From: an uncultured bacterium
GTDB lineage: Bacteria > Patescibacteriota > Minisyncoccia > Phycocordibacterales > CAIRYW01
DNA length: 64,000 nt
Assembly: GCA_963766885.1 (NCBI GenBank)
Contig: CAVYBO010000001.1
Span: 132,352-196,351 of the forward strand
Reading direction: 5' to 3'
Positions 26,911-36,700 of the stretch are shown piece after piece. The notes beneath the pieces were generated by a model. That model was given only the letters and a program-made list of their open reading frames with translations, was not told the origin of the DNA and did not search any database. The translations under genes and the position numbers were made by a program. Positions within the stretch are counted from its first letter, which is position 1. The number at the start of each line of letters is the position of its first letter.

Positions 26911-27126
26911 ATGAAAACAATGACATGCGCTCAAATGGGCGGAGAATGCGATGCAAAGATCAGCGGAAGCACTCCAGATGAAATGATTACCAATGGTATG
27001 AAGCATCTAGAAGAATCTCATCCAGAAATGGCTGAGGATGTGAAGAAATCAGATCCAAAAGACCCTATGATGGTGGAATGGAAAAACAAGTTTGACAAGG
27101 ATTTTGCCGCAGCTCAGGAAATGTAA
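26911..27126 (+). CDS. DUF1059 family small protein
   Basis: MKTMTCAQMGGECDAKISGSTPDEM… matches the DUF1059 N-terminal signature (MKxxxCxxxGxxCD). Confidence 0.6.
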   Translation: MKTMTCAQMGGECDAKISGSTPDEMITNGMKHLEESHPEMAEDVKKSDPKDPMMVEWKNKFDKDFAAAQEM

Positions 27127-27154
27127 CAAAGCCGCGAAAGCGGCTCAATAAAAA

Positions 27155-27514
27155 TTACAGTTCCTCGGAGTCGGTTAAATGGTCAGGATTCAATTTTGTC
27201 AAAGGTTCAATATCTAGACAAACACTTTTGAATAAATTTTCATCAAAATCGCCAAATTTTTGTTTTATTTTATTTCTTAAATCTTCTGAATCTGTCTTCC
27301 CAAAATTCAGAAAATTTTCTAATACTTCTATTTTATATTTTGTGCGGACCATTACTTCCTCTCTGGTTTGATTTTTTGGTATTTCTTGATTGTCTCTGTA
27401 TCTTTGAAGTCTTTCTTTGTAATCTGCCAGCTTATCTTCCAGATACGAAAATGTTTTCATTTTTCGGGCTTGTTCTGTTGGGTCTACAATACCATCATCT
27501 TTGATTTCAAACAT
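27155..27514 (-). CDS. hypothetical protein
   Basis: 119-aa ORF, charged and probably helical. No domain recognised. Confidence 0.4.
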   Translation of the reverse strand: MFEIKDDGIVDPTEQARKMKTFSYLEDKLADYKERLQRYRDNQEIPKNQTREEVMVRTKYKIEVLENFLNFGKTDSEDLRNKIKQKFGDFDENLFKSVCLDIEPLTKLNPDHLTDSEEL

Positions 27515-27558
27515 AACAAAATATTATCACGTTTATAATTTTTATTTTAACCTGGGGA

Positions 27559-28488
27559 TTATACTTTTGCCAAAAGATTTTCAATTTCTGTTTTTAACTT
27601 TAAATCGTTTAGCCATTCAGATGGAAGAGAATCTATACCATTTGCTATGCCAATAATTGTTCCAAGCACTAATCCTCGCGCGGAGCTATCTCCGCCGGCA
27701 AGTGCATTGATGCGCAAAATGTCCGCGCTGTCTTTGGTGTTGATAATAAGCAAAAACATTACTGCAATGAAAGCATCAGGAAGCGCGCACGACTGGCCAA
27801 TTTCTTTTATAGCTTGCCGAGGATCCATAGAAAGTTCTGCGTAATGAGTTGCCTTTGCAAAGCTTTCTTTTATCATCTTTGAATCTGATTTTTCGGCAAC
27901 AGTCTTAATTGTTGTCTGGATATCAGTTTGATTTTCTGACAAAGAATAACAAACTTCGCTAAGATATTTTGTGGTTTCTTTTACAAGTTCGGAGTTGTGG
28001 GTGAGGCTGGCTTGAAGCATTACAGCATCAACTGCTTCTTTTTCTGATTTCTGCAAATATGAGTACAAAGGAGCAATAAAAAGTCCTCGTGCTACTCCTG
28101 CTAATTCTTCGCTTGAAGAAGCTGCTTGGGTTAGAGGTTTTCCCGCCGCGATGTTTTCTAAAGTATCTTTTGTCGCGTGGTCTTTATAGCTTTGTGTTCC
28201 TGACTGCCAAAATTCCAGCCAAGATTTCATAAAAGATTCTGCATCAAATACACCCCCGTTTTCCATACAGTTTTTCAAAACCAAAAATGCCTGGTCGCCA
28301 ATGTGCGTCTGGTCTCCTTTTGTCTTGCCTGGATGGTAGGAAGTTCCAGGCGCAGACAATACATCAAGAGTGGGAAATTTTTTATCAATCTCTGCGGTGT
28401 CATAGATCCAATGAGGACCTAGAGCTAGACTATCGGCAATAAAGGCTCCAAAAACCCCGTTTTCAAATGTGTTTTTTGATTTATTCAT
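27559..28488 (-). CDS. ADP-ribosylglycohydrolase family protein
   Basis: N-terminus GVFGAFIADSLALGPHWIYD and C-terminal …ALAGGDSSARGLVLGTIIGI… are typical of the ARH/DraG fold. The start is placed at the internal Met (MNKSKNTF…); the upstream extension in the track is probably spurious. Confidence 0.65.
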   Translation of the reverse strand: MNKSKNTFENGVFGAFIADSLALGPHWIYDTAEIDKKFPTLDVLSAPGTSYHPGKTKGDQTHIGDQAFLVLKNCMENGGVFDAESFMKSWLEFWQSGTQSYKDHATKDTLENIAAGKPLTQAASSSEELAGVARGLFIAPLYSYLQKSEKEAVDAVMLQASLTHNSELVKETTKYLSEVCYSLSENQTDIQTTIKTVAEKSDSKMIKESFAKATHYAELSMDPRQAIKEIGQSCALPDAFIAVMFLLIINTKDSADILRINALAGGDSSARGLVLGTIIGIANGIDSLPSEWLNDLKLKTEIENLLAKV

Positions 28489-28571
28489 ATTTATATTATA
28501 GCAAATAAGAAGTTGGAAATTTTTGTATAAAAATTGAGAAACTTTTCTTTGTGTGCTAAAAAGGTGTTTGC

Positions 28572-29189
28572 ATGAGTACTTTAGATATTTCTTCAGATGT
28601 CGATTTGGAAGCAATCGCCCAAAGAATCAAAGCCAGAGACCAGGAAGCAATGGGACAGCTGGTGATATCCCTTCAGACGATTGTCACCGCTATCATCATG
28701 AAAGTTGTTCATAATCAGCATGATTCGGAGGATGTTTTCTCCGAGGTAATGGTGCAAGTCTGGGACCTCATCGATAACTTCAACCCCAGCAAAGGCAAAT
28801 TTATGGGTTGGATCGTTACGCTGGCTCGTCGTCGGGCTATTGACAGGCTGCGGGCAAAGCAGACCTTCCACAGGTATCACGACGAATTAGCAAGGGAGCA
28901 GTCATTCCTTGAAGGGAGTCTTTCTGATTTCTCTGAAATGATTGATCTCGATGAAGATGTGCGCGAGAGAGTTCGTCAACTGATAAATAGCGAAGGGATT
29001 CCTGTGGCACAGAGGGAGGCGCTCTACCTTGCTTTCTTTGGCGGCCTTAGCCATAGGGAGATTGCTCTACGGACAGGCAAGCCGCTTGGCACAATCAAGA
29101 CTCGCTTGGAGCTTGGCATGGCCAAAGTCGAAAGCCTGATTCGGAACGATTCAATCTGCAAAGATTGGATCCTTGCAGACAGTATGTGA
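28572..29189 (+). CDS. ECF-type RNA polymerase sigma factor (sigma-70 regions 2 and 4)
   Basis: Region 2 …FSEVMVQVWDLIDNFNPSKGKFMGWIVTLARRRAIDRLR… and region 4 …AQREALYLAFFGGLSHREIALRTGKPLGTIKTRLELGMAKV. GC-richer than the flanks. No obvious anti-sigma factor gene adjacent. Confidence 0.8.
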   Translation: MSTLDISSDVDLEAIAQRIKARDQEAMGQLVISLQTIVTAIIMKVVHNQHDSEDVFSEVMVQVWDLIDNFNPSKGKFMGWIVTLARRRAIDRLRAKQTFHRYHDELAREQSFLEGSLSDFSEMIDLDEDVRERVRQLINSEGIPVAQREALYLAFFGGLSHREIALRTGKPLGTIKTRLELGMAKVESLIRNDSICKDWILADSM

Positions 29190-29214
29190 GACCGAAAGGT
29201 CTCAATTTTTTTTA
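29188..29214 (+). terminator. rho-independent terminator after ECF sigma gene
   Basis: GAGACC GAAA GGTCTC hairpin followed by AATTTTTTTT. Confidence 0.7.
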
Positions 29215-29470
29215 TTTAAAAATCTTGAAATGAAAATTTAATTATAAAAAATTCGCCCAGAGTGAGCGATTAAAACGGCAAAATAGGATAACGAAACAAT
29301 AGGTAAAGAATGATGCAGCATGCCACCTCTGCACATAAAACGTGTCCTGGTCTTCCAGTGAAAAGTCGTAATTCAAGAAGGAGATGATCCTTCTGTTCCG
29401 CTAAAGTTTTAAAGAGCTTCATATAAACAATTTTCCACGTATCTGTACAAATGTCAATGTTTTAAATTGA

Positions 29471-29503
29471 GTAGTTAAACGTCAAAGATAGAGTTATTAT
29501 TAA
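29471..29503 (+). promoter_or_regulatory. conserved 33-nt motif copy B (GTAGTTAAACGTCAAAGATAGAGTTATTATTAA)
   Basis: 30/33 identical to copy A. Ends 3 nt before the ATG of the DHFR-like gene and contains TATTAT, a -10-like element. Confidence 0.4.
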
Positions 29504-29506
29504 TAT

Positions 29507-30121
29507 ATGAGAAAAATAATTACCACAACATTTTTAACTTTAGACGGCGTGATGCAAGCGCCAGGCGGACAGGAAGAAGATAAAACAGGCGGCTTTGCAT
29601 ATGGCGGCTGGAGTATGAAGTATTGGGACGAAGTGGGAGGAAATATTATGACCGGCTTTATGAATCTGCCGTTTGAACTGCTTTTAGGGAGAAAAACATA
29701 TGATATTTTTGCAGCTTATTGGCCAACTTCAAATCAAGACTCCGTAGTGGCAAATCCGTTTAACTCTACCAAAAAATATGTTGTTTCAAATAATCCAGAT
29801 ACAAAGACTCCTTGGCAGAATTCAACACTCGTGACAGGCGACGTGGTGGCAGAAATCCAAAAACTCAAAGCCATGGACGGCCCGGATTTGTGGGTGCATG
29901 GCAGCGGCAACCTTATCCAAACTCTGCTTCAAAATAATCTGATAGACCGAATGCATATTTGGATATGCCCATGCACGGTTGGCGGAGGCAAGCGCTTGTT
30001 TGCAGAAGGCACACAACCAGAAGACTTTAAACTTGTTGACTCCAAAATCTCCAAGACTGGCGTGATTATTGCTACATACGAACCCGCCGGCCCGCTCAAA
30101 ACCGGCTCATTCGCGGGGTAA
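29507..30121 (+). CDS. dihydrofolate reductase family protein (RibD C-terminal domain-like)
   Basis: MRKIITTTFLTLDGVMQAPGG… and …WVHGSGNLIQTLL…, the RibD_C/DHFR-like fold (YwjB/YyaP type). Confidence 0.65.
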   Translation: MRKIITTTFLTLDGVMQAPGGQEEDKTGGFAYGGWSMKYWDEVGGNIMTGFMNLPFELLLGRKTYDIFAAYWPTSNQDSVVANPFNSTKKYVVSNNPDTKTPWQNSTLVTGDVVAEIQKLKAMDGPDLWVHGSGNLIQTLLQNNLIDRMHIWICPCTVGGGKRLFAEGTQPEDFKLVDSKISKTGVIIATYEPAGPLKTGSFAG

Positions 30122-30172
30122 TTGTTTGTGGTAAAATATTGGCTATAAATTAAAAGCTAAGAAGAAAAAGTG

Positions 30173-30310
30173 ATGGATTTTGAAGAACTGGAAGAAAAAA
30201 TTGACTCTCTTGAAGAAGAAATTAGAGTCTTAAAAGACAAGGTTATGTGGATAGAAATTATCGGTTTTATCTACATTCTCATAGTTCTATTTATAACCCA
30301 TACTATTTAG
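30173..30310 (+). CDS. 45-aa tail-anchored peptide (N-terminal coiled coil, C-terminal TM helix)
   Basis: MDFEELEEKIDSLEEEIRVLKDKVMWIEIIGFIYILIVLFITHTI. A purine-rich stretch precedes the ATG. Not in the 60-aa ORF track. Confidence 0.3.
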   Translation: MDFEELEEKIDSLEEEIRVLKDKVMWIEIIGFIYILIVLFITHTI

Positions 30311-30399
30311 GATAATTAACATAGTGTAGTTATTTTAAAAATTTAAGGTAAGAAGTAGATTTAACTTTACAAAACCATTTTTTATGAGATTATTTCCCC

Positions 30400-30999
30400 A
30401 TGGAATTTCAATGGCAATCTCTACATAATCTTGACTCCTATAGCTATCTTTGCGGCTACTGTGGTAATTCTTTAGCCTCAGCACTGGGTTATTCGGCGGC
30501 CCACTTTAATGTTCCAGGACTTCCTTCGGGTCGTCACGCGTTTATATACATATGTCATCATTGTCAGAAACCAACATTTTTTAACATAAATTACAGCGAA
30601 CAAACACCTGGTGTAAAATTTGGTAATTATGTAAAAGATATAACTGATGAAAAAGTAGCTTCTCTCTATGATGAAGCCAGAAGATGTTTTTCACAGAATG
30701 CTTTCACATCTGTTGTTTTAGCTTGTAGAAAACTTTTAATGCACATAGCCGTAGAGAAAGGTGCGCCGGCCGGAAAGAATTTTATTGAATATGTTGAATA
30801 TCTATCAACTCAAAATTATATTCCACCCGATGCAAAAGATTGGGTTGATCATATAAGAAAAAAAGGAAATGAAGCGAATCATGAAATTACGGTTATGTCT
30901 GAAGAAGATGCAAAAGATCTACTTGGTTTTTCAGAAATGCTACTGAAATTAGTGTATGAATTCCCGGCTAATATTAAGAAAAAAACAGCGAAACCTTAA
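30400..30999 (+). CDS. Zn-ribbon-like N-terminus plus DUF4145 (HEPN-like) domain protein
   Basis: N-terminus CGYCGN…CHHCQ (2x CxxC). The C-terminal half …KVASLYDEARRCFSQNAFTSVVLACRKLLMHIAV…IPPDAKDWVDHIRKKGNEANHEITVMSEEDAKDLLGFSEMLLKLVYEF matches the DUF4145 pattern (helical, conserved R…GN..aH). Confidence 0.5.
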   Translation: MEFQWQSLHNLDSYSYLCGYCGNSLASALGYSAAHFNVPGLPSGRHAFIYICHHCQKPTFFNINYSEQTPGVKFGNYVKDITDEKVASLYDEARRCFSQNAFTSVVLACRKLLMHIAVEKGAPAGKNFIEYVEYLSTQNYIPPDAKDWVDHIRKKGNEANHEITVMSEEDAKDLLGFSEMLLKLVYEFPANIKKKTAKP

Positions 31000-31007
31000 T
31001 TTCAAAT

Positions 31008-31847
31008 ATGGAGGCAACAACATCAATCGCAATAGCTGATCTTATTAATTTGTCGCAAGGACTAGCTAGTACTAACCTAGGATATTTAGAAGTTGCTGTT
31101 GCTATAATTGCTATTATTATAGCATTATTGGGAACCGCTTTTTATGTTTTCAATTTTAAACCTCTAAAAGACCTACTTGATAAACAAGAGGATGCCATTA
31201 AAGATTTGAAGAAAGAGGTCAAAGATAGTTTTGATAAGGCAGAAGGGTCATTAAATAAAACTACCGCTGAATTTAAGGATAGTTATTCGAAGGAAATATC
31301 AACAACTTTAGAAAGTAGAGAAGAAAAACTTCTATCAGATGTTAAATCTCAGATAGCAATTTTAGATAAAAATTTATCTCAAAAAATTGAAGATGTTACA
31401 AAAATAAAAGATGATAACCTAAAAACCGTAGTCTTATCAGAGATTGGTAGCCAACTACGTGCTTTGGAAAAGAGTCTAATTGCCAACGTTGCTGAGTACA
31501 AAGAATCAAACATCAAAGAATTGTCTACATTAAAATCTGATTTAGATTCAGGTTTAAGAGAATTGAAAATGAAAGTTAAGGAATTAGAGGCTTTTAAATA
31601 CCACACTGAAGGAAAAATGGGAGGGATTCTATATTTAATGGATGTACTTGAAGATTATATTAAATATAAACCGCATTTACTTGAATTTAGGTTAGAAGAA
31701 ATCAAAGAAAGAATAGGTCAATACTCTTTAACTAAGGAAAGAAGTGACAGGTTAAAAGCAATTCTAAATAAAATAAAAGGTAAAGAGTACGATAAAATAA
31801 TTGCTGAAATTGAAAGCGCAATTGTCTTAGAAGAAGAAAAAAAATAA
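31008..31847 (+). CDS. membrane-anchored coiled-coil protein (hypothetical)
   Basis: One N-terminal TM helix (LEVAVAIIAIIIALLGTAFYVF), then about 250 aa of K/E-rich heptad-like sequence. Starts 8 nt after the DUF4145 gene. Confidence 0.45.
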   Translation: MEATTSIAIADLINLSQGLASTNLGYLEVAVAIIAIIIALLGTAFYVFNFKPLKDLLDKQEDAIKDLKKEVKDSFDKAEGSLNKTTAEFKDSYSKEISTTLESREEKLLSDVKSQIAILDKNLSQKIEDVTKIKDDNLKTVVLSEIGSQLRALEKSLIANVAEYKESNIKELSTLKSDLDSGLRELKMKVKELEAFKYHTEGKMGGILYLMDVLEDYIKYKPHLLEFRLEEIKERIGQYSLTKERSDRLKAILNKIKGKEYDKIIAEIESAIVLEEEKK

Positions 31848-31851
31848 TTTT

Positions 31852-32994
31852 CTAATGATGTGAATGGCCGCCGGAAGTTTTTTCTCCTGGTTTTAGGAAA
31901 TAGGTTGCGATGAGTGTGGTGATTGGTACGCAAAGGATTAGACCTATGGAGCCTATGAGAATTCGGACGATTTCTGTGGCAAAGATTTCTTTATTAATGG
32001 TGTAAGCCAATCCGTAAGTAGAACTTTGTGCCAAAAGCAGGATTGGAAGTGCTGCGCCCACGTAGGCGATTGCCAAAGTGTTGACCAACGCGCCGATGTG
32101 TTCGCGGCCAATGCGGATGGCGCGTTTGTAAATTTGCTTCTTGTTTACATTGCTATTCATTTCATTGCTGTGTGTATTTGCTGCATTCAATAATTCTTCC
32201 ACGGCCACAGCTTGGCCTATACTGATGTCGTAGAGCACTCCAAGAAGTCCAATCATAATTGCGCCAAAGAGAAGGCCAACCAAATCAATTGTGCCGCTGG
32301 AATTAAAATTCAAGAAAGAAGCTTCTTCACTGTTGTAGCCTGTCAGGTTGGCGGCGTGGATAAAATAATAGGCTGCGAGTCCTGTGATGATGACGGTGAT
32401 AATCATTCCCACAACTGCGGCTGAGGTGGTGCGGTTGAATCCGTGGGTGATGTATGAGCCGACGATTATGATGAGCGATGCAATACCTATGCTAAGAAAC
32501 GCGGGCGAGTATCCAGCAAGGATTCCTGGAATGAGGAGATAAAAAATAATAATCATACTGCCACAAAGGCTCACAAATCCGCGCACACCTTGGATGCCGC
32601 CAAAAATAATTGTCAGCGCTAAAAATATTAATGCCAAAACCAAAAGAACATTGAGGCGATATGGATCCGAAACAGAATACTCATCTTGATTGCCGTCGGT
32701 TGTGTGATGCAGATAAAACTCATCTCCGGTTTTGAGCTGCACGTAGTCGTTATCAAAAATAATTGTGCGGCCAGCATCAACTCCACTCATCACGTATGCT
32801 TTGAGAGTTTGGATTTGGGAAACTGTGTTTGTGCCAGCGACTGTAGAAGTGCCTTGATTTGAAACACCCACAACTTGAGCTTTTTCTATAACATCAAGCG
32901 TGCCTTGCGGGGCAGAAGTTGTGGCTGTTTGAGCGAAGGCGTTTGAGGCGTCAAAAATTAAAAACAAATAGAAAAAAATCAACGCGTTTTTCAT
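31852..32994 (-). CDS. YibE/F family membrane protein
   Basis: Signal peptide, a soluble N-domain, then a polytopic region with …GFNRTTSAAVVGMIIT… and …RIGREHIGALVNTLAIAYVGAALPILLL…, typical of YibE/F. Confidence 0.7.
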   Translation of the reverse strand: MKNALIFFYLFLIFDASNAFAQTATTSAPQGTLDVIEKAQVVGVSNQGTSTVAGTNTVSQIQTLKAYVMSGVDAGRTIIFDNDYVQLKTGDEFYLHHTTDGNQDEYSVSDPYRLNVLLVLALIFLALTIIFGGIQGVRGFVSLCGSMIIIFYLLIPGILAGYSPAFLSIGIASLIIIVGSYITHGFNRTTSAAVVGMIITVIITGLAAYYFIHAANLTGYNSEEASFLNFNSSGTIDLVGLLFGAIMIGLLGVLYDISIGQAVAVEELLNAANTHSNEMNSNVNKKQIYKRAIRIGREHIGALVNTLAIAYVGAALPILLLAQSSTYGLAYTINKEIFATEIVRILIGSIGLILCVPITTLIATYFLKPGEKTSGGHSHH

Positions 32995-33029
32995 TATTTT
33001 AGTATAACATTTTAGAATAATAAACTTCG

Positions 33030-33476
33030 CTATTCAGCTCTTGCAGAAGTTTGGTAGAGAGTAACAGCTTGTTCCAAAAGTTTATCTTTAGCAAAATCAA
33101 CGTCGGTATCGCCTTGCAATTCTTTTACGGCAACAAAGACAAAATTACTATTAACTCTTTTGTACATCTTTTTACTTGCCACAAGCGTCCTGACTTGGCA
33201 GTCATCGATATAAAGTTTTCCTTTTAAAGAATCTAAAACCGTTTTTGCCATATTATCCACATCTCGGGTATCGTAATCTTTCTTGAGCAGGAAGAATTGC
33301 AGTATAAAAACCACAACTTCTTTTTTGGATGGAAAAGTGGGCAGGTTTATTATTTCTCTGGTAATTGTTTTATCAACCAAAGTTTTAAATGCAGAAACTT
33401 TTTCACCCTCTCTGTCATCTTGCTTTGAGGGGATTATTTCAGTAAGTCCGAACCTGTAGTCAAAATATTTAGACAT
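33030..33476 (-). CDS. rusA: RusA-like Holliday junction resolvase (endodeoxyribonuclease RusA family)
   Basis: The motif DVDNMAKTVLDSLKGKLYIDDCQVRTLVASKKM fits the RusA catalytic signature DxDNxxKxxxDAL…DDxQV…K. Confidence 0.5.
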   Translation of the reverse strand: MSKYFDYRFGLTEIIPSKQDDREGEKVSAFKTLVDKTITREIINLPTFPSKKEVVVFILQFFLLKKDYDTRDVDNMAKTVLDSLKGKLYIDDCQVRTLVASKKMYKRVNSNFVFVAVKELQGDTDVDFAKDKLLEQAVTLYQTSARAE

Positions 33477-33632
33477 TTAATGCTTCTTTGCTTGAAATTT
33501 CACGCGAGTTTCAACAGGAACTTTTTCTTTTGCTACAAACTTAACTTTTTCTCCAGTCTTAGTGTAAAGACTCACCTGAACTGGCTTGTTTTTATATTGA
33601 GTTGCTATAAATGTTACAGTTTTTTTATTCAT
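33477..33632 (-). CDS. 51-aa basic protein, translationally coupled to rusA-like gene
   Basis: MNKKTVTFIATQYKNKPVQVSLYTKTGEKVKFVAKEKVPVETRVKFQAKKH. Its stop TAA directly abuts the ATG of the downstream gene. Confidence 0.3.
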   Translation of the reverse strand: MNKKTVTFIATQYKNKPVQVSLYTKTGEKVKFVAKEKVPVETRVKFQAKKH

Positions 33633-33742
33633 AGATTTAATTTAATTATATATCACTTTAAAATCAATTGAAAGATACTAATAATAACGTTTGTTTAGTG
33701 GAAAAGTTGCATAAAAAAATCGCTTCCCATTTGCATGAGAAG

Positions 33743-34024
33743 CTAGTGCGCCGGAGCGGGGATGAGGACTTTTTCGTGTTCGGTACCGTCTCCAAGACGG
33801 TAAACCTCGACGACTTCTCCGTTGGCCTTGCGGCCGACGCAGTTCTCCTGCTCTTGGAATAGGAAGCCGTAGTTTCCGTGGCCGAATTCAGCGGTCATAC
33901 GCTGGTTGAAGTCTTTCATTTCGTTGTTGGAGTCCCGGTCCACTTTCTTGAGTTCTTGAGGAATTCCATAGCCGAAAATCCAAATGCATGCGCCCAACAG
34001 TAAGACACAAAAGATCACTTTCAT
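33743..34024 (-). CDS. putative lipoprotein (hypothetical)
   Basis: MKVIFCVLLLGAC: signal peptide with an L-G-A-C lipobox. GC-rich coding sequence. Confidence 0.4.
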   Translation of the reverse strand: MKVIFCVLLLGACIWIFGYGIPQELKKVDRDSNNEMKDFNQRMTAEFGHGNYGFLFQEQENCVGRKANGEVVEVYRLGDGTEHEKVLIPAPAH

Positions 34025-34123
34025 ATGCTTATAAACTACAATACTAATTACAAAAGTCAATATATTCAATAAAAATCTACATTTTAATTCAAACGTCTTT
34101 CAAAATATGCTAAACTAGCGCTT

Positions 34124-36700
34124 ATGTCAGTTTTGCAAACATTATTTGGCGATGCCACAGGCAAATTCATCAAAGCCGCTGAGCCGATAGTCAAAAAAAT
34201 AAACGATCTTGAGCCTGATTTTCAAAAGCTTACAGATGCTGAATTGAAACAGAAAACTGTTGAATTTAAAGAACGCTTAAATAAAGGAGAGACTTTTGAT
34301 GATATTTTGCCGGAAGCATTTGCTCTAGTGCGCGAAGCATCCAAGAGGACTTTGGGTTTGAGGCATTTTGACGTGCAGCTTATCGGAGGACTGGCGCTTC
34401 ACAAAGGAAAGATTGCCGAAATGCGCACAGGAGAAGGTAAGACATTGGTGGCAACATTGCCGCTGTATCTTAATGCCTTAAATGGAAAAGGTGTGCATTT
34501 GGTGACTGTGAACGATTATCTTTCTCGAAGAGACGCAGTCTGGATGGGACAGATTTTTGATTTTCTTGGACTTACTGTGGGAGTTATCAATCACGACTCT
34601 TCATATTTGTATGACTCAACGCACACAGAACTGGATGAAAAAAGAGATGAAGTGGCCACATACAAAGTCGTCTACGAATTTCTACGACCAATAACTAGAC
34701 CTGAAGCATACAGAGCAGACATTACTTATGGAACCAACAATGAATTCGGGTTTGATTATTTGCGCGATAATATTTCATATAACGTTACTGATTTAAGACA
34801 GAGAGAATTTGAATATGCGATTGTGGATGAGATTGACTCTATTTTGATTGATGAAGCAAGAACGCCTTTGATAATTTCTGGACCCGCTGCGCAGGCGGAA
34901 AATTTGTATGTGGTTTTTGCCAAGATTGCAGAAAAACTTCACGAAGGAGAAGATTTTGAAATTGATCACAAAAGGCGAACAGTGTCTTTGACGGACGCGG
35001 GAATTGAAAAAGCGGAAAAAGCCCTTGGAGTGGATAATATTTATACTGAAAAAGGAATCAAGTACGTGCATCATTTGGAAACTGCGGTCAAAGCCAAAGG
35101 GCTTTTTCATTTGGACAAAGAATACGTGGTGCGCGACGGCGAGGTGATGATTGTGGATGAATTTACAGGACGCATGCAGCCGGGCAGAAGATGGAGCGAA
35201 GGCTTGCATCAGGCAATTGAAGCCAAAGAAGGAGTAAAGATAAAAGAAGAAACTCGCACATACGCATCGGTGACATATCAAAATTATTTTAGACTCTACA
35301 AAAAACTTGCTGGAATGACAGGAACAGCCAAAACATCAGCGGAAGAGTTTATGAAAGTGTACAAGCTTGAAACAATTGAAGTGCCAACGCACGTGCAGGT
35401 GCAGAGAACGGATCATCACGATTTGATTTTCCAGAGCGAAGACGGCAAATTCAGCGCCATTGCAAAACGCGTCAAAGAAATTCATCAAAAGGGCCAGCCG
35501 ATTCTTATTGGTACGGTTTCGATTGATAGAAACGAACTTTTGAGCGAGAGATTGAGACGTGAAGGAATTCCTCACCAGATTTTGAATGCAAAAAATCACG
35601 AAAGAGAAGGTGAAATTATTGCAGGCGCAGGAAATAAAGGTGCTGTGACGATTGCCACAAACATGGCGGGAAGAGGAGTGGACATCAAACTTGGAGGATT
35701 GCCCTACAGTGATGAAAAGGCCGAGGAAGTCAAAAAACTTGGCGGACTTTTTGTGCTTGGAACAGAGCGACACGAAGCTAGAAGAATTGATAATCAGCTG
35801 CGAGGACGATCCGGACGACAGGGAGATTCTGGCGAGACGCAGTTTATGGTATCTCTAGAAGATAGTTTGATGAAAGCATTTCCAACCGACACAATCAAAA
35901 GAGTGATGCAGATGGGATTCCAACCTGATGAGCCGATAAAAAGCAGAATCGTGTCGCATTCTATTGAAAGCGCTCAGACCAAGATTGAAGGTTTGCATTT
36001 TGACGCCAGGAAACACGTGCTTGAATTTGACGATGTGCTGAACCATCAGCGAAGCGTGATTTACGGACGCCGCAGAAAAATTTTAACAGGAACAGAAGAA
36101 GACGTGCGCGAGGAACTTAATGAAATGTTATCAGGATCTCAGGGTCACAGTCTTCGTTCGCCGTTGGCGAAGTCGCCTGTGACGCCTTCGATCCTACCTA
36201 AAGCCGAGGAAGTGCAAGGATTCGAGTCTGTTTTGAAAGAAAAAGAAAAGCAAATTGGCACGGATGCTTTTGTTGCGGGTGTGCGGGCTTTGATGCTGCA
36301 AGCGATTGATTTTTTCTGGATGGATCACTTGGAGATGATGGATTATTTGCGAGGCAGTGTGAACTTGCGCGCATATGGCCAGAGAGATCCGCTTGTTGAA
36401 TACAAAAAAGAAGGACTGATTCTTTTCCGAAACATGGAAGTGTCAATTGCAAATATGGTTGCTGAAGCTCTGCCAAATATGTCTGGACCGATTAAATTGG
36501 AAGCAATCAAAAACACTGTAGAAGTCCACGAAGGACCAACTGCTGAAGCGCCTCAAGCTCCAAAACCGATAGCTGTAGAAGCTAAAGTTGGCCGAAACGA
36601 TCCTTGCCCCTGCGGAAGCGGAAAGAAATACAAAAAATGCGGGGAATTAAACACCGAAGAACACAGAAACCTGATGGCCCAGAAGATGGCAGGTAAGTAG
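34124..36700 (+). CDS. secA: preprotein translocase subunit SecA
   Basis: DEAD motor motifs (…MRTGEGKTLVATLP…, …DEIDSILIDEARTPLIISG…), the helical scaffold, and the C-terminal zinc finger CPCGSGKKYKKC. Confidence 0.9.
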   Translation: MSVLQTLFGDATGKFIKAAEPIVKKINDLEPDFQKLTDAELKQKTVEFKERLNKGETFDDILPEAFALVREASKRTLGLRHFDVQLIGGLALHKGKIAEMRTGEGKTLVATLPLYLNALNGKGVHLVTVNDYLSRRDAVWMGQIFDFLGLTVGVINHDSSYLYDSTHTELDEKRDEVATYKVVYEFLRPITRPEAYRADITYGTNNEFGFDYLRDNISYNVTDLRQREFEYAIVDEIDSILIDEARTPLIISGPAAQAENLYVVFAKIAEKLHEGEDFEIDHKRRTVSLTDAGIEKAEKALGVDNIYTEKGIKYVHHLETAVKAKGLFHLDKEYVVRDGEVMIVDEFTGRMQPGRRWSEGLHQAIEAKEGVKIKEETRTYASVTYQNYFRLYKKLAGMTGTAKTSAEEFMKVYKLETIEVPTHVQVQRTDHHDLIFQSEDGKFSAIAKRVKEIHQKGQPILIGTVSIDRNELLSERLRREGIPHQILNAKNHEREGEIIAGAGNKGAVTIATNMAGRGVDIKLGGLPYSDEKAEEVKKLGGLFVLGTERHEARRIDNQLRGRSGRQGDSGETQFMVSLEDSLMKAFPTDTIKRVMQMGFQPDEPIKSRIVSHSIESAQTKIEGLHFDARKHVLEFDDVLNHQRSVIYGRRRKILTGTEEDVREELNEMLSGSQGHSLRSPLAKSPVTPSILPKAEEVQGFESVLKEKEKQIGTDAFVAGVRALMLQAIDFFWMDHLEMMDYLRGSVNLRAYGQRDPLVEYKKEGLILFRNMEVSIANMVAEALPNMSGPIKLEAIKNTVEVHEGPTAEAPQAPKPIAVEAKVGRNDPCPCGSGKKYKKCGELNTEEHRNLMAQKMAGK

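Follow-up and report, generated by a model that had tools for sequence, protein, structure and literature searches.

The islet and its reading frames

In the window, by which we mean the whole 64,000-nucleotide stretch of bacterial DNA that was analysed, an AT-rich islet of 1.7 kb lies where RibD_C (the DHFR-like gene) and YibE/F converge with their 3' ends. It carries three reading frames, here called g1, g2 and g3, with the following features.

30122–31851, no strand: islet with g1, g2 and g3; AT-rich and compositionally foreign, flanked by the converging 3' ends of RibD_C and YibE/F
30173–30310, plus strand: g1, a 45-aa open reading frame with an acidic, heptad-like N terminus and a hydrophobic C-terminal tail (frame present; predicted by a gene caller on an independent Logan contig)
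30366–30393, plus strand: promoter-like site, TTTACA, 16 nt, TG-GATTAT (consensus match only)
30400–30999, plus strand: g2, a RAZR-like (PD-T7-4 family) zinc-ribbon and DUF4145/HEPN protein of 199 aa (Pfam, PADLOC, family profile, hhalign, AlphaFold)
30400–30582, plus strand: N-terminal Cys4 zinc-ribbon domain of g2, residues 1–61 (invariant cysteines, predicted β-strands, alignment to RAZR)
30649–30990, plus strand: C-terminal DUF4145/HEPN helical domain of g2, residues 84–197
30856–30882, plus strand: putative RNase active-site motif of g2, R153-x3-N157-x3-H161 (RKKGNEANH; conservation, alignment to RAZR)
31008–31847, plus strand: g3, a membrane-anchored protein of 279 aa with a long helix and, at the C terminus, a compact helical domain (homologues, AlphaFold)

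A preliminary description of this DNA had reported three co-directional frames at these positions, near DHFR-like, YibE/F, RusA and ECF sigma factor genes, and all of these are indeed present. The GC content of the islet is 31 %, against 44–45 % in the flanking genes, and GC3 stands at 0.30 in g1, 0.23 in g2 and 0.20 in g3, compared with 0.44 and 0.46 in the flanks. From the RibD_C stop to g1 there are 51 bp, from g1 to g2 89 bp and from g2 to g3 just 8 bp; the g3 stop lies 4 bp from the convergent stop of YibE/F. Because the g2–g3 gap is so short, the three frames probably share one transcript here. The promoter-like site ends 7 nt before the g2 start codon, and since such sites are no commoner in the region than in shuffled sequence, we treat it as a lead and not as evidence.

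The independent Logan contig (1815 bp) is identical to window positions 30093–31907, which means that this other assembly is broken at either edge of the islet. Neither direct repeats (att-like ones included) nor inverted repeats were found flanking the islet, and the window has no tRNA gene. A metagenome scan for YibE/F relatives, aimed at reconstructing the site as it was before the islet, returned none; the nearest YibE/F homologues are only 63–66 % identical, and three of the contigs that carry them lack synteny with the window. Nor is the window itself a defence island, the neighbourhood of g2 being RibD_C, YibE/F and SecA.

g2 and the RAZR family

The second gene had been described as a zinc-ribbon protein with a DUF4145, HEPN-like domain, on the strength of its CGYCGN and CHHCQ motifs and the segment HIRKKGNEANHE, and this description held up well. 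Pfam DUF4145 (PF13643), the hit expected for 30400–30999, matches g2 residues 92–178 over model positions 2–87 of 88 (E 3.2e-13, 50.0 bits against a gathering cutoff of 23.1). Four cysteines, C18 (30451–30453), C21 (30460–30462), C52 (30553–30555) and C55 (30562–30564), are invariant in 69/69 homologues. The AlphaFold model (pLDDT 93.8) gives the N-terminal domain five β-strands and the C-terminal domain an α-helical HEPN fold. The R…H pair that had been singled out is R153/H161, a conserved pair of catalytic type: R153 is kept in 63, N157 in 66 and H161 in 67 of the 69 homologues. Its spacing, R-x7-H with a conserved N midway, does not conform to the canonical HEPN Rx4-6H motif; it is the divergent form present in RAZR, where it is catalytic (PMC13017515). 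The zinc ribbon is the less conserved of the two domains, with a mean pairwise identity of 0.32 among homologues against 0.45 for the HEPN domain.

It had also been said that the locus matches no named system. For g2, at least, there is such a system: PD-T7-4, a single-gene abortive-infection RNase since renamed RAZR (PMC13017515). The PADLOC PD-T7-4 model matches g2 residues 13–174 (E 9.7e-7), although at 26.5 bits and 74 % coverage of the model an automatic defence finder may or may not call it. A profile built from the 69 homologues matches the RAZR chain 9y9c_OA through both domains (E 5.2e-5; profile positions 12–167, chain residues 9–163), and a profile comparison with hhalign gives 96.5 % probability over 141 columns (E 8.8e-10). 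In the 9y9c_OA alignment R153 pairs with R146 and H161 with H154, so that RKKGNEANH of g2 lies against RIVGNQAVH of RAZR; in both the profile search and hhalign the cysteine pairs of g2 fall on the RAZR zinc-finger motifs CPHCG and CSHCG. The two proteins are far apart, with about 21 % identity between g2 and E. coli RAZR. Pairwise BLAST between them is confined to the HEPN domain (E 0.001), Foldseek of the g2 model against 9y9c_OA is weak (E 0.018, TM 0.35), and a single-sequence phmmer search of the PDB with g2 brought up noise only, CALHM1 for example; it was the family profile that reached RAZR. Taken together, these alignments indicate that g2 is a distant homologue of RAZR and a new member of that known defence family.

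That g2 is a real gene is indicated by its 1889 homologues. The clade of g2 is separate from RAZR, and those of its members that bear a name come from several phyla, Patescibacteria included. Temperate phages and plasmids carry homologues too, and an IMG/VR scan with the single g2 protein found one viral contig, its match being 41 % identical. GC content was measured for 14 loci, and in 13 of them the homologue lies below its own flanks. We examined 30 genome loci and two further contigs, relatives at 71–75 % identity among them, and no neighbouring gene is conserved across these 32 contexts. As far as genomic evidence goes, then, g2 appears to behave as a single gene.

Among the genes directly beside these homologues are restriction genes (type I HsdS/HsdR, a type IIG restriction-modification enzyme, a restriction-like helicase of type IV) as well as serine recombinases, Fic/Doc toxins, a SocA antitoxin and a GajA/AbiL-like ATPase. 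One could read g2 as an accessory or regulatory part of a restriction-modification system, like the DUF4145 that is fused to HsdR, a reading to which we give very little credence. One homologue does sit between hsdS and hsdR (locus L029), restriction genes of type IIG or type IV adjoin others, fusions of DUF4145 with restriction and helicase modules have been described (PMC3710099), and g2 itself matches the N terminus of a type I HsdR model weakly (E 3.8e-4). The preliminary description had placed DUF4145 at the C terminus of type I R subunits; in the matched model it is N-terminal, at positions 15–113 of 1123. Against this reading, most of the homologue loci have no restriction-modification gene as a neighbour, no such gene is present among the open reading frames of window positions 27000–35000 (those scanned with Pfam gave none), and in its zinc-ribbon architecture g2 follows stand-alone RAZR rather than the HsdR fusions.

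The predicted HEPN fold of g2 resembles HepT toxins, and this likeness, with the Fic/Doc and SocA genes near some homologues, could suggest a toxin–antitoxin pair with g2 as its HEPN toxin and g1 or g3 as its antitoxin. We find this hardly credible: the window contains no MNT nucleotidyltransferase gene and the homologue loci neither that nor any other recurrent partner, g1 and g3 do not accompany g2 in other genomes, and the combination of R-x7-H spacing with a zinc ribbon belongs to DUF4145/RAZR and not to HepT. Hardly more credible is that g2 is a zinc-ribbon DNA-binding protein in which catalysis plays no part. The label 'DNA binding protein' is carried by phrog_1305 and two phage records that hold g2 homologues, but as annotation without a test behind it, and the R/N/H motif is 91–97 % conserved across the family; moreover, the RAZR residues equivalent to R153 and H161, R146 and H154, are required for defence (PMC13017515).

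What we consider probable is that g2 stands alone as an anti-phage gene of the zinc-ribbon and DUF4145/HEPN type and was acquired horizontally. In favour are its homology to RAZR across both domains, conserved metal ligands and catalytic residues, a HEPN fold, no conserved partner, a foreign or mobile context, and the defence genes and recombinases beside some of its homologues. In RAZR the zinc-finger domain is the more variable part and sets specificity, and the triggers are large ring assemblies such as phage portal proteins (PMC13017515). By analogy, the variable Cys4 zinc ribbon of g2 would sense a phage protein; binding of this trigger would rearrange g2 oligomers, so that paired HEPN domains build an active R153/H161 RNase site, and the site would then cleave single-stranded RNA, halt translation and abort the infection. 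That g2 cuts RNA, what triggers it and that infection is aborted are all inferred from a homologue only 21 % identical to it. We know of no phage of this host.

g1, g3 and the question of a module

The first frame does have the makings of the small coiled-coil and transmembrane peptide it had been taken for: 45 aa from the ATG (46 aa from a GTG at 30170), with a tail that reaches a maximum Kyte–Doolittle hydrophobicity of 2.5. No homologue of g1 was found, nor any relative adjoining homologues of g2 or g3, and its family matches are weak and compositional (XhlA, E 0.022; phrog_35006, E 0.0014). It is an unconserved small frame, a possible gene at best, and lies outside the g2 system.

By contrast with g1, g3 is marked as a real gene by its 13 homologues. 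As had been proposed it is a single-pass membrane protein, with one hydrophobic segment at residues ~27–47; AlphaFold predicts ~150 residues of long helix and then a compact C-terminal helical domain, the only part that is modelled with confidence. The family numbers 14 proteins including g3 (the homologues are 32–61 % identical, and the two named members are Patescibacteria) and shares the motifs NLGYL, KPLKD and EGKMGG. Searches of Pfam, PADLOC, NCBIfam and PHROG gave no match above noise, and scans of IMG/VR and INPHARED gave no member of the family. A fold search of the PDB with the g3 model gave no meaningful match, its C-terminal domain included, the best being designed helical proteins at E 0.38. 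Matches of g3 to DUF948, ZorA, DrmD and ATP synthase b were below threshold and look like coiled-coil compositional matches.

Could the three genes be one module for abortive infection or toxicity, with g2 as its nuclease effector and the membrane proteins as sensors or anchors? So the preliminary description had proposed, and the frames are co-directional, g2 and g3 almost touch, all three have the same foreign, AT-rich composition, and the independent contig covers exactly these genes, which is compatible with their gain or loss in one block. The proposal did not survive the synteny check. None of the 32 g2-homologue contexts has a relative of g1 or g3, even at 71–75 % identity to g2, and none of the six independent g3-homologue contexts has a DUF4145 gene. 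Small hydrophobic or membrane frames that might be analogous rather than homologous to g1 do not recur beside g2 homologues either, and upstream of the g3 homologues a g1-like frame occurs in a single locus (L034), where 95 aa of similar coiled-coil and transmembrane architecture have no sequence similarity to g1. RAZR, the characterised homologue, acts as a single gene (PMC13017515). A module is thus very unlikely, and because the genes do not co-occur elsewhere we reject that interpretation; on comparative grounds the trio is an accident of adjacency and no system.

We regard g3 instead as a separate accessory gene, foreign-looking in composition and independent of its neighbour g2. Every member of the family occupies a sharp GC trough of its own, one gene wide, and in many cases a tRNA gene comes shortly before it: three of the six contexts begin 30–210 bp after one, with no att-like direct repeats found around these tRNA-adjacent homologues, and a fourth lies in a tRNA-bounded island beside a ThaI restriction-modification pair. 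Because of these troughs, the tRNA-adjacent contexts and the ThaI neighbour, one might see in the islet a two-gene mini defence island, the g3 family being an independently mobile single-gene membrane factor, for example of superinfection exclusion or abortive infection; this we hold to be unlikely. In a rarer variant, g3 could tether or modulate the RAZR-like RNase at the membrane, in this lineage only.

g2 among known defence systems

The islet brings no new kind of system; what g2 adds is a further instance of a defence gene already known. It is a RAZR-type zinc-ribbon HEPN gene with all catalytic and metal-binding residues intact, and the genes of the genome that carries it have their nearest relatives in Patescibacteria. 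RAZR is thereby shown to be part of a family far larger and more diverse than the enterobacterial examples studied to date, with members in phages and on plasmids. Some 1900 proteins now called 'DUF4145 domain-containing' or 'DNA binding' gain a testable annotation, and their divergent zinc-ribbon sensors offer a set with which to ask whether activation by phage rings is general.

Several known systems invite comparison. HepT/MNT differs from g2, which has no MNT antitoxin gene, R-x7-H in place of the canonical Rx4-6H, and an extra, putative sensing domain. The HsdR, restriction and helicase fusions, BxaP and Ishtar1 share with g2 the same Pfam HEPN-like domain and a defence context (PMC3710099, PMC10799925, 10.64898/2026.07.06.735840), but they are large multidomain proteins or have other partner domains, and none combines the N-terminal Cys4 zinc ribbon with a 200-aa stand-alone form. 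DS-38, a validated single-protein defence system, likewise has HEPN and zinc-finger domains in one protein, a likeness to g2 that we draw from its description only; it is reported to align with PD-T7-4 in the HEPN domain only and to use a different zinc finger (10.1101/2025.01.08.631726), so a common architecture is no guarantee of a common trigger. The closest counterpart is RAZR, formerly PD-T7-4, of E. coli UMB1727 (Vassallo et al. 2022, PMC9519451; Zhang et al. 2026, PMC13017515; PDB 9y9c). Each is a single gene whose product, ~200 aa long, runs from a Cys4 zinc ribbon at the N terminus through a linker to a DUF4145/HEPN domain at the C terminus; R-x7-H aligns residue for residue; the zinc ribbon is the most variable domain; and both are carried on mobile elements and prophages. 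They differ in that g2, at its low identity, falls into a large clade of its own, with at least 326 clusters (50 % identity, E < 1e-30), and the higher-order oligomers, activation by ring proteins and cleavage of single-stranded RNA that characterise RAZR would extend to g2 by analogy only.

The islet and its genes

Between a RibD_C/DHFR-like gene and a YibE/F gene of the window, and bounded by the stop codons of both, lie three co-directional ORFs (30170-31850), which we call g1, g2 and g3 and which are present exactly as the preliminary description had them.

Genes of the islet and its surroundings
28572-29189, ECF sigma factor gene, nearby
29507-30121, RibD_C/DHFR-like gene, its stop codon bounding g1-g3 on one side
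30173-30310, g1, 45 aa; other possible start GTG at 30170
30400-30999, g2, 199 aa, co-directional with g1
31008-31847, g3, 279 aa, co-directional with g1 and g2
31852-32994, YibE/F gene, convergent, its stop codon bounding g1-g3 on the other side
33030-33476, RusA-like gene, nearby

Homologues known from elsewhere show that g2 and g3 are real genes. The g1 ORF was also predicted by a gene caller on an independent contig; no homologue of it was found, its matches to small coiled-coil/transmembrane proteins being weak and compositional only. The short distance of 8 bp from g2 to g3 points to co-transcription of the two in the window, and a promoter-like site (a consensus match only) ends 7 nt 5' of the g2 start.

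The whole islet (30122-31851) is AT-rich, with a GC content of 31 % against 44-45 % in the flanking genes, and synonymous sites tell the same story, with GC3 values of 0.30, 0.23 and 0.20 for g1, g2 and g3 compared with 0.44 for RibD_C and 0.46 for YibE/F. An independent 1815-bp Logan contig (L037, ERR11630394) is 100 % identical to window positions 30093-31907 and, because it ends there, the Logan assembly breaks about 30 bp beyond each islet edge. With the Logan k-mer size of 31, contig ends at these positions are what presence-absence polymorphism for the islet among strains would give, and they may reflect such a polymorphism within the population. Neither repeats flanking the window islet nor a close relative that could reveal the empty site were found. 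The acquisition of g1, g2 and g3 may have been a single event or stepwise.

Several features of the surroundings are worth recording. The RusA-like resolvase gene (region 33030-33632; Pfam E 1.5e-8, phrog_140 E 1.4e-9) has a GC3 of 0.32, below YibE/F and SecA, and a 51-aa ORF abuts its start codon. It had been taken for part of a prophage remnant, which is at most a candidate reading, as a scan of neighbouring ORFs matched no other phage family. At 48 % (GC3 0.53), GC in the ECF sigma factor gene exceeds the window average of 39 %. As listed, this gene overlaps a divergent ADP-ribosylglycohydrolase long ORF (27559-28614) by 43 bp; the latter gene probably begins in truth at an internal ATG, that of MNKSKNTF. 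ARAGORN detected no tRNA or tmRNA genes in the whole 64-kb window (1-64000).

g2 and the RNase RAZR

PD-T7-4 was discovered through functional selection in Escherichia coli (PMC9519451) and renamed RAZR, for ring-activated zinc-finger RNase, in 2026 (PMC13017515). It is a single-gene abortive-infection protein in which an N-terminal Cys4 zinc finger precedes a DUF4145 domain, a divergent HEPN RNase, at the C-terminus; its defence requires R146 and H154 (PMC13017515). The preliminary description knew of no named system that matched the islet; g2 matches this one, published in 2022 and 2026.

The zinc-ribbon plus DUF4145 architecture proposed for g2 held up well. With 50 bits (E 3.2e-13), g2 clears the Pfam DUF4145 cutoff of 23.1, and it matches the PADLOC PD-T7-4 model over residues 13-174 (E 9.7e-7). 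We aligned 69 diverse homologues (A1), and the resulting family profile found the RAZR chain 9y9c_OA across both domains (E 5.2e-5); hhalign gave 96.5 % probability (E 8.8e-10, 141 columns, 21 % identity). RKKGNEANH of g2 aligns with RIVGNQAVH of RAZR, so that R153 corresponds to R146 and H161 to H154. Cysteines 18, 21, 52 and 55 are invariant among the 69 homologues, and R153 is kept in 63, N157 in 66 and H161 in 67. In the AlphaFold model, which is confident (pLDDT 93.8), a linker joins an N-terminal domain of five strands to a C-terminal domain of five helices; Foldseek ranked RAZR second with this model, weakly (E 0.018). That g2 might instead be a plain DNA-binding protein, zinc ribbon and all, strikes us as very improbable. 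The family is large, with 1889 matches in a 90 % clustered collection and 326 members at E < 1e-30 in a 50 % identity representative library.

The company g2 and g3 keep elsewhere

The three genes had been proposed to form a module, a proposal staked on their co-occurrence in related genomes. In the contexts sampled they do not occur together. Our sample of g2 homologues covered 30 genome loci at 33-75 % identity, from phyla including Patescibacteria, Acidobacteriota, Proteobacteria, Planctomycetota, Chloroflexota and Firmicutes. By tblastn, no g1 or g3 relatives lay near these 30 loci (best E about 0.4-3), and all-against-all ORF clustering revealed no neighbour family common to more than two to three related genomes. 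Recurrent small hydrophobic ORFs beside g2 homologues were likewise not found, and g3 was absent from two further contigs with g2 homologues at 74-75 % identity. Looked at from the other side, six independent contexts of g3 homologues (L031, L032/33, L034, L035/36, L043 and L044) held no DUF4145 gene or g1-like ORF. With zero co-occurrence from either direction, a three-gene module has little chance of being right, for all that the genes are neighbours in the window. g2 behaves as a single gene, and its lack of conserved partners fits what is known of RAZR, which works as a single-gene system.

The genes immediately beside g2 homologues vary and often have defence, toxin-antitoxin or mobile-element functions: a type IV restriction-like or PbeA-like helicase (L001), a type IIG R-M enzyme with a serine recombinase (L005), a resolvase (L002), a recombinase (L042), Fic/Doc toxins (L007, L009), an ORF6N protein (L008), a GajA/AbiL/AriA-like ATPase (L010), type I hsdS and hsdR on either side (L029) and a SocA/Panacea antitoxin (L030). 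Some are housekeeping genes such as SpoIID. Restriction enzymes in this varied list might make g2 an accessory of an R-M system, which we consider most unlikely; the Fic/Doc and SocA/Panacea genes might make it the toxin of a toxin-antitoxin pair, for which the chances seem equally slim. g2 homologues are also mobile, occurring in temperate phages (Terrisporobacter phage TVCOM_ph1, 49 %; Lactobacillus phage KC5a orf31, 42 %; phrog_1305, E 4e-24) and on plasmids, with GC below the flanks in 13 of 14 loci measured.

Two arrangements merit separate mention. At L029 (2039-7593, an Acutalibacteraceae MAG), the hsdS/hsdR type I operon encloses the g2 homologue and an unannotated 207-aa ORF; this is a defence gene nested within another defence system. 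Two loci from Acidobacteriota share an order in which the g2 homologue directly follows a SpoIID-domain gene and is itself directly followed by a conserved hydrophobic ORF of 31 aa (MKFSRNQIIGSLILLG...; L011 4571-4666, L027 4591-4686), a lineage-specific synteny seen only in these two.

The g3 family numbers 14 proteins, of which the two named are Patescibacteria. Its N-terminus bears a conserved segment (DLINLS..LA..NLGYL), one transmembrane helix and a basic juxtamembrane motif (FN.KPLKD); beyond the membrane, the alignment and AlphaFold give a long helix of about 150 residues, a conserved EGKMGG and a compact helical C-terminal domain. Nothing rose above noise against curated families, and the model had no fold match in the PDB.

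Copies of the g3 family
Window, 31008-31847
L031, 4001-4810
L032, 3437-4282
L034, 4001-4822
L035, 4001-4843
L043, 3001-3822
L044, 3001-3840

Of the six contexts outside the window, five have a g3 homologue with GC3 clearly below that of its neighbours (for example 0.35 against 0.72-0.85 in L031, 0.42 against 0.59-0.69 in L035, and 0.37 against 0.62-0.68 in three adjoining genes of L044); in L043 the gap is slight. The GC trough was limited to the single g3-family gene in all four loci profiled. In three of the six contexts a tRNA gene, each time a different one (Tyr, Phe, Leu), precedes the start of the homologue by 30-210 bp, and in L043 it sits just 3' of a ThaI endonuclease and methyltransferase pair, within a segment that has tRNA genes at its borders. 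Neither an integrase nor att-like repeats were found at g3-family loci. Given the low GC3 and the tRNA-adjacent or tRNA-bounded contexts, g3 looks like an independently moving accessory gene. The homologues of L031 and L044, 61 % and 33 % identical to window g3 (family alignment A2), both have glyoxalase-like and AHSA1/Polyketide_cyc2 genes just downstream (L031 4857-6298, L044 3913-5046), which suggests either a place where insertion recurs or a long stay in spite of the foreign composition.

A probable RAZR-like role for g2

We think it probable that g2 acts on its own as an abortive-infection RNase of the RAZR type, and this reading has the best support. The variable zinc ribbon of g2 would detect an assembly of phage proteins, rearrangement of the g2 oligomer would turn on a composite R153/H161 HEPN site, and the activated protein would degrade RNA and block translation. 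The analysis shows the kinship with RAZR, the metal-binding and catalytic residues, the fold, the single-gene behaviour and the mobility; the activity, trigger and outcome we infer from a homologue only 21 % identical. If correct, RAZR-type defence reaches a large divergent clade and a genome whose genes resemble those of Patescibacteria; a by-product is the g3 family, with its AT-rich islets of one gene next to tRNA genes.

The zinc-ribbon and DUF4145 combination already featured in a 2013 survey of HEPN proteins (PMC3710099). In RAZR it is the zinc-finger domain that binds the phage ring, made of a portal protein or putative recombinase; RAZR forms a 24-mer around the ring and then cuts single-stranded RNA non-specifically (PMC13017515). 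Mean pairwise identity in the g2 family is 0.32 for the zinc ribbon against 0.45 for the HEPN domain, and in RAZR the zinc-finger domain is likewise the more variable. DS-38 is another validated zinc-finger and HEPN protein, the zinc finger of which is said to differ from that of PD-T7-4, so trigger logic may differ among such proteins. g2 is a new, distant member of the already known RAZR-type kind of defence.
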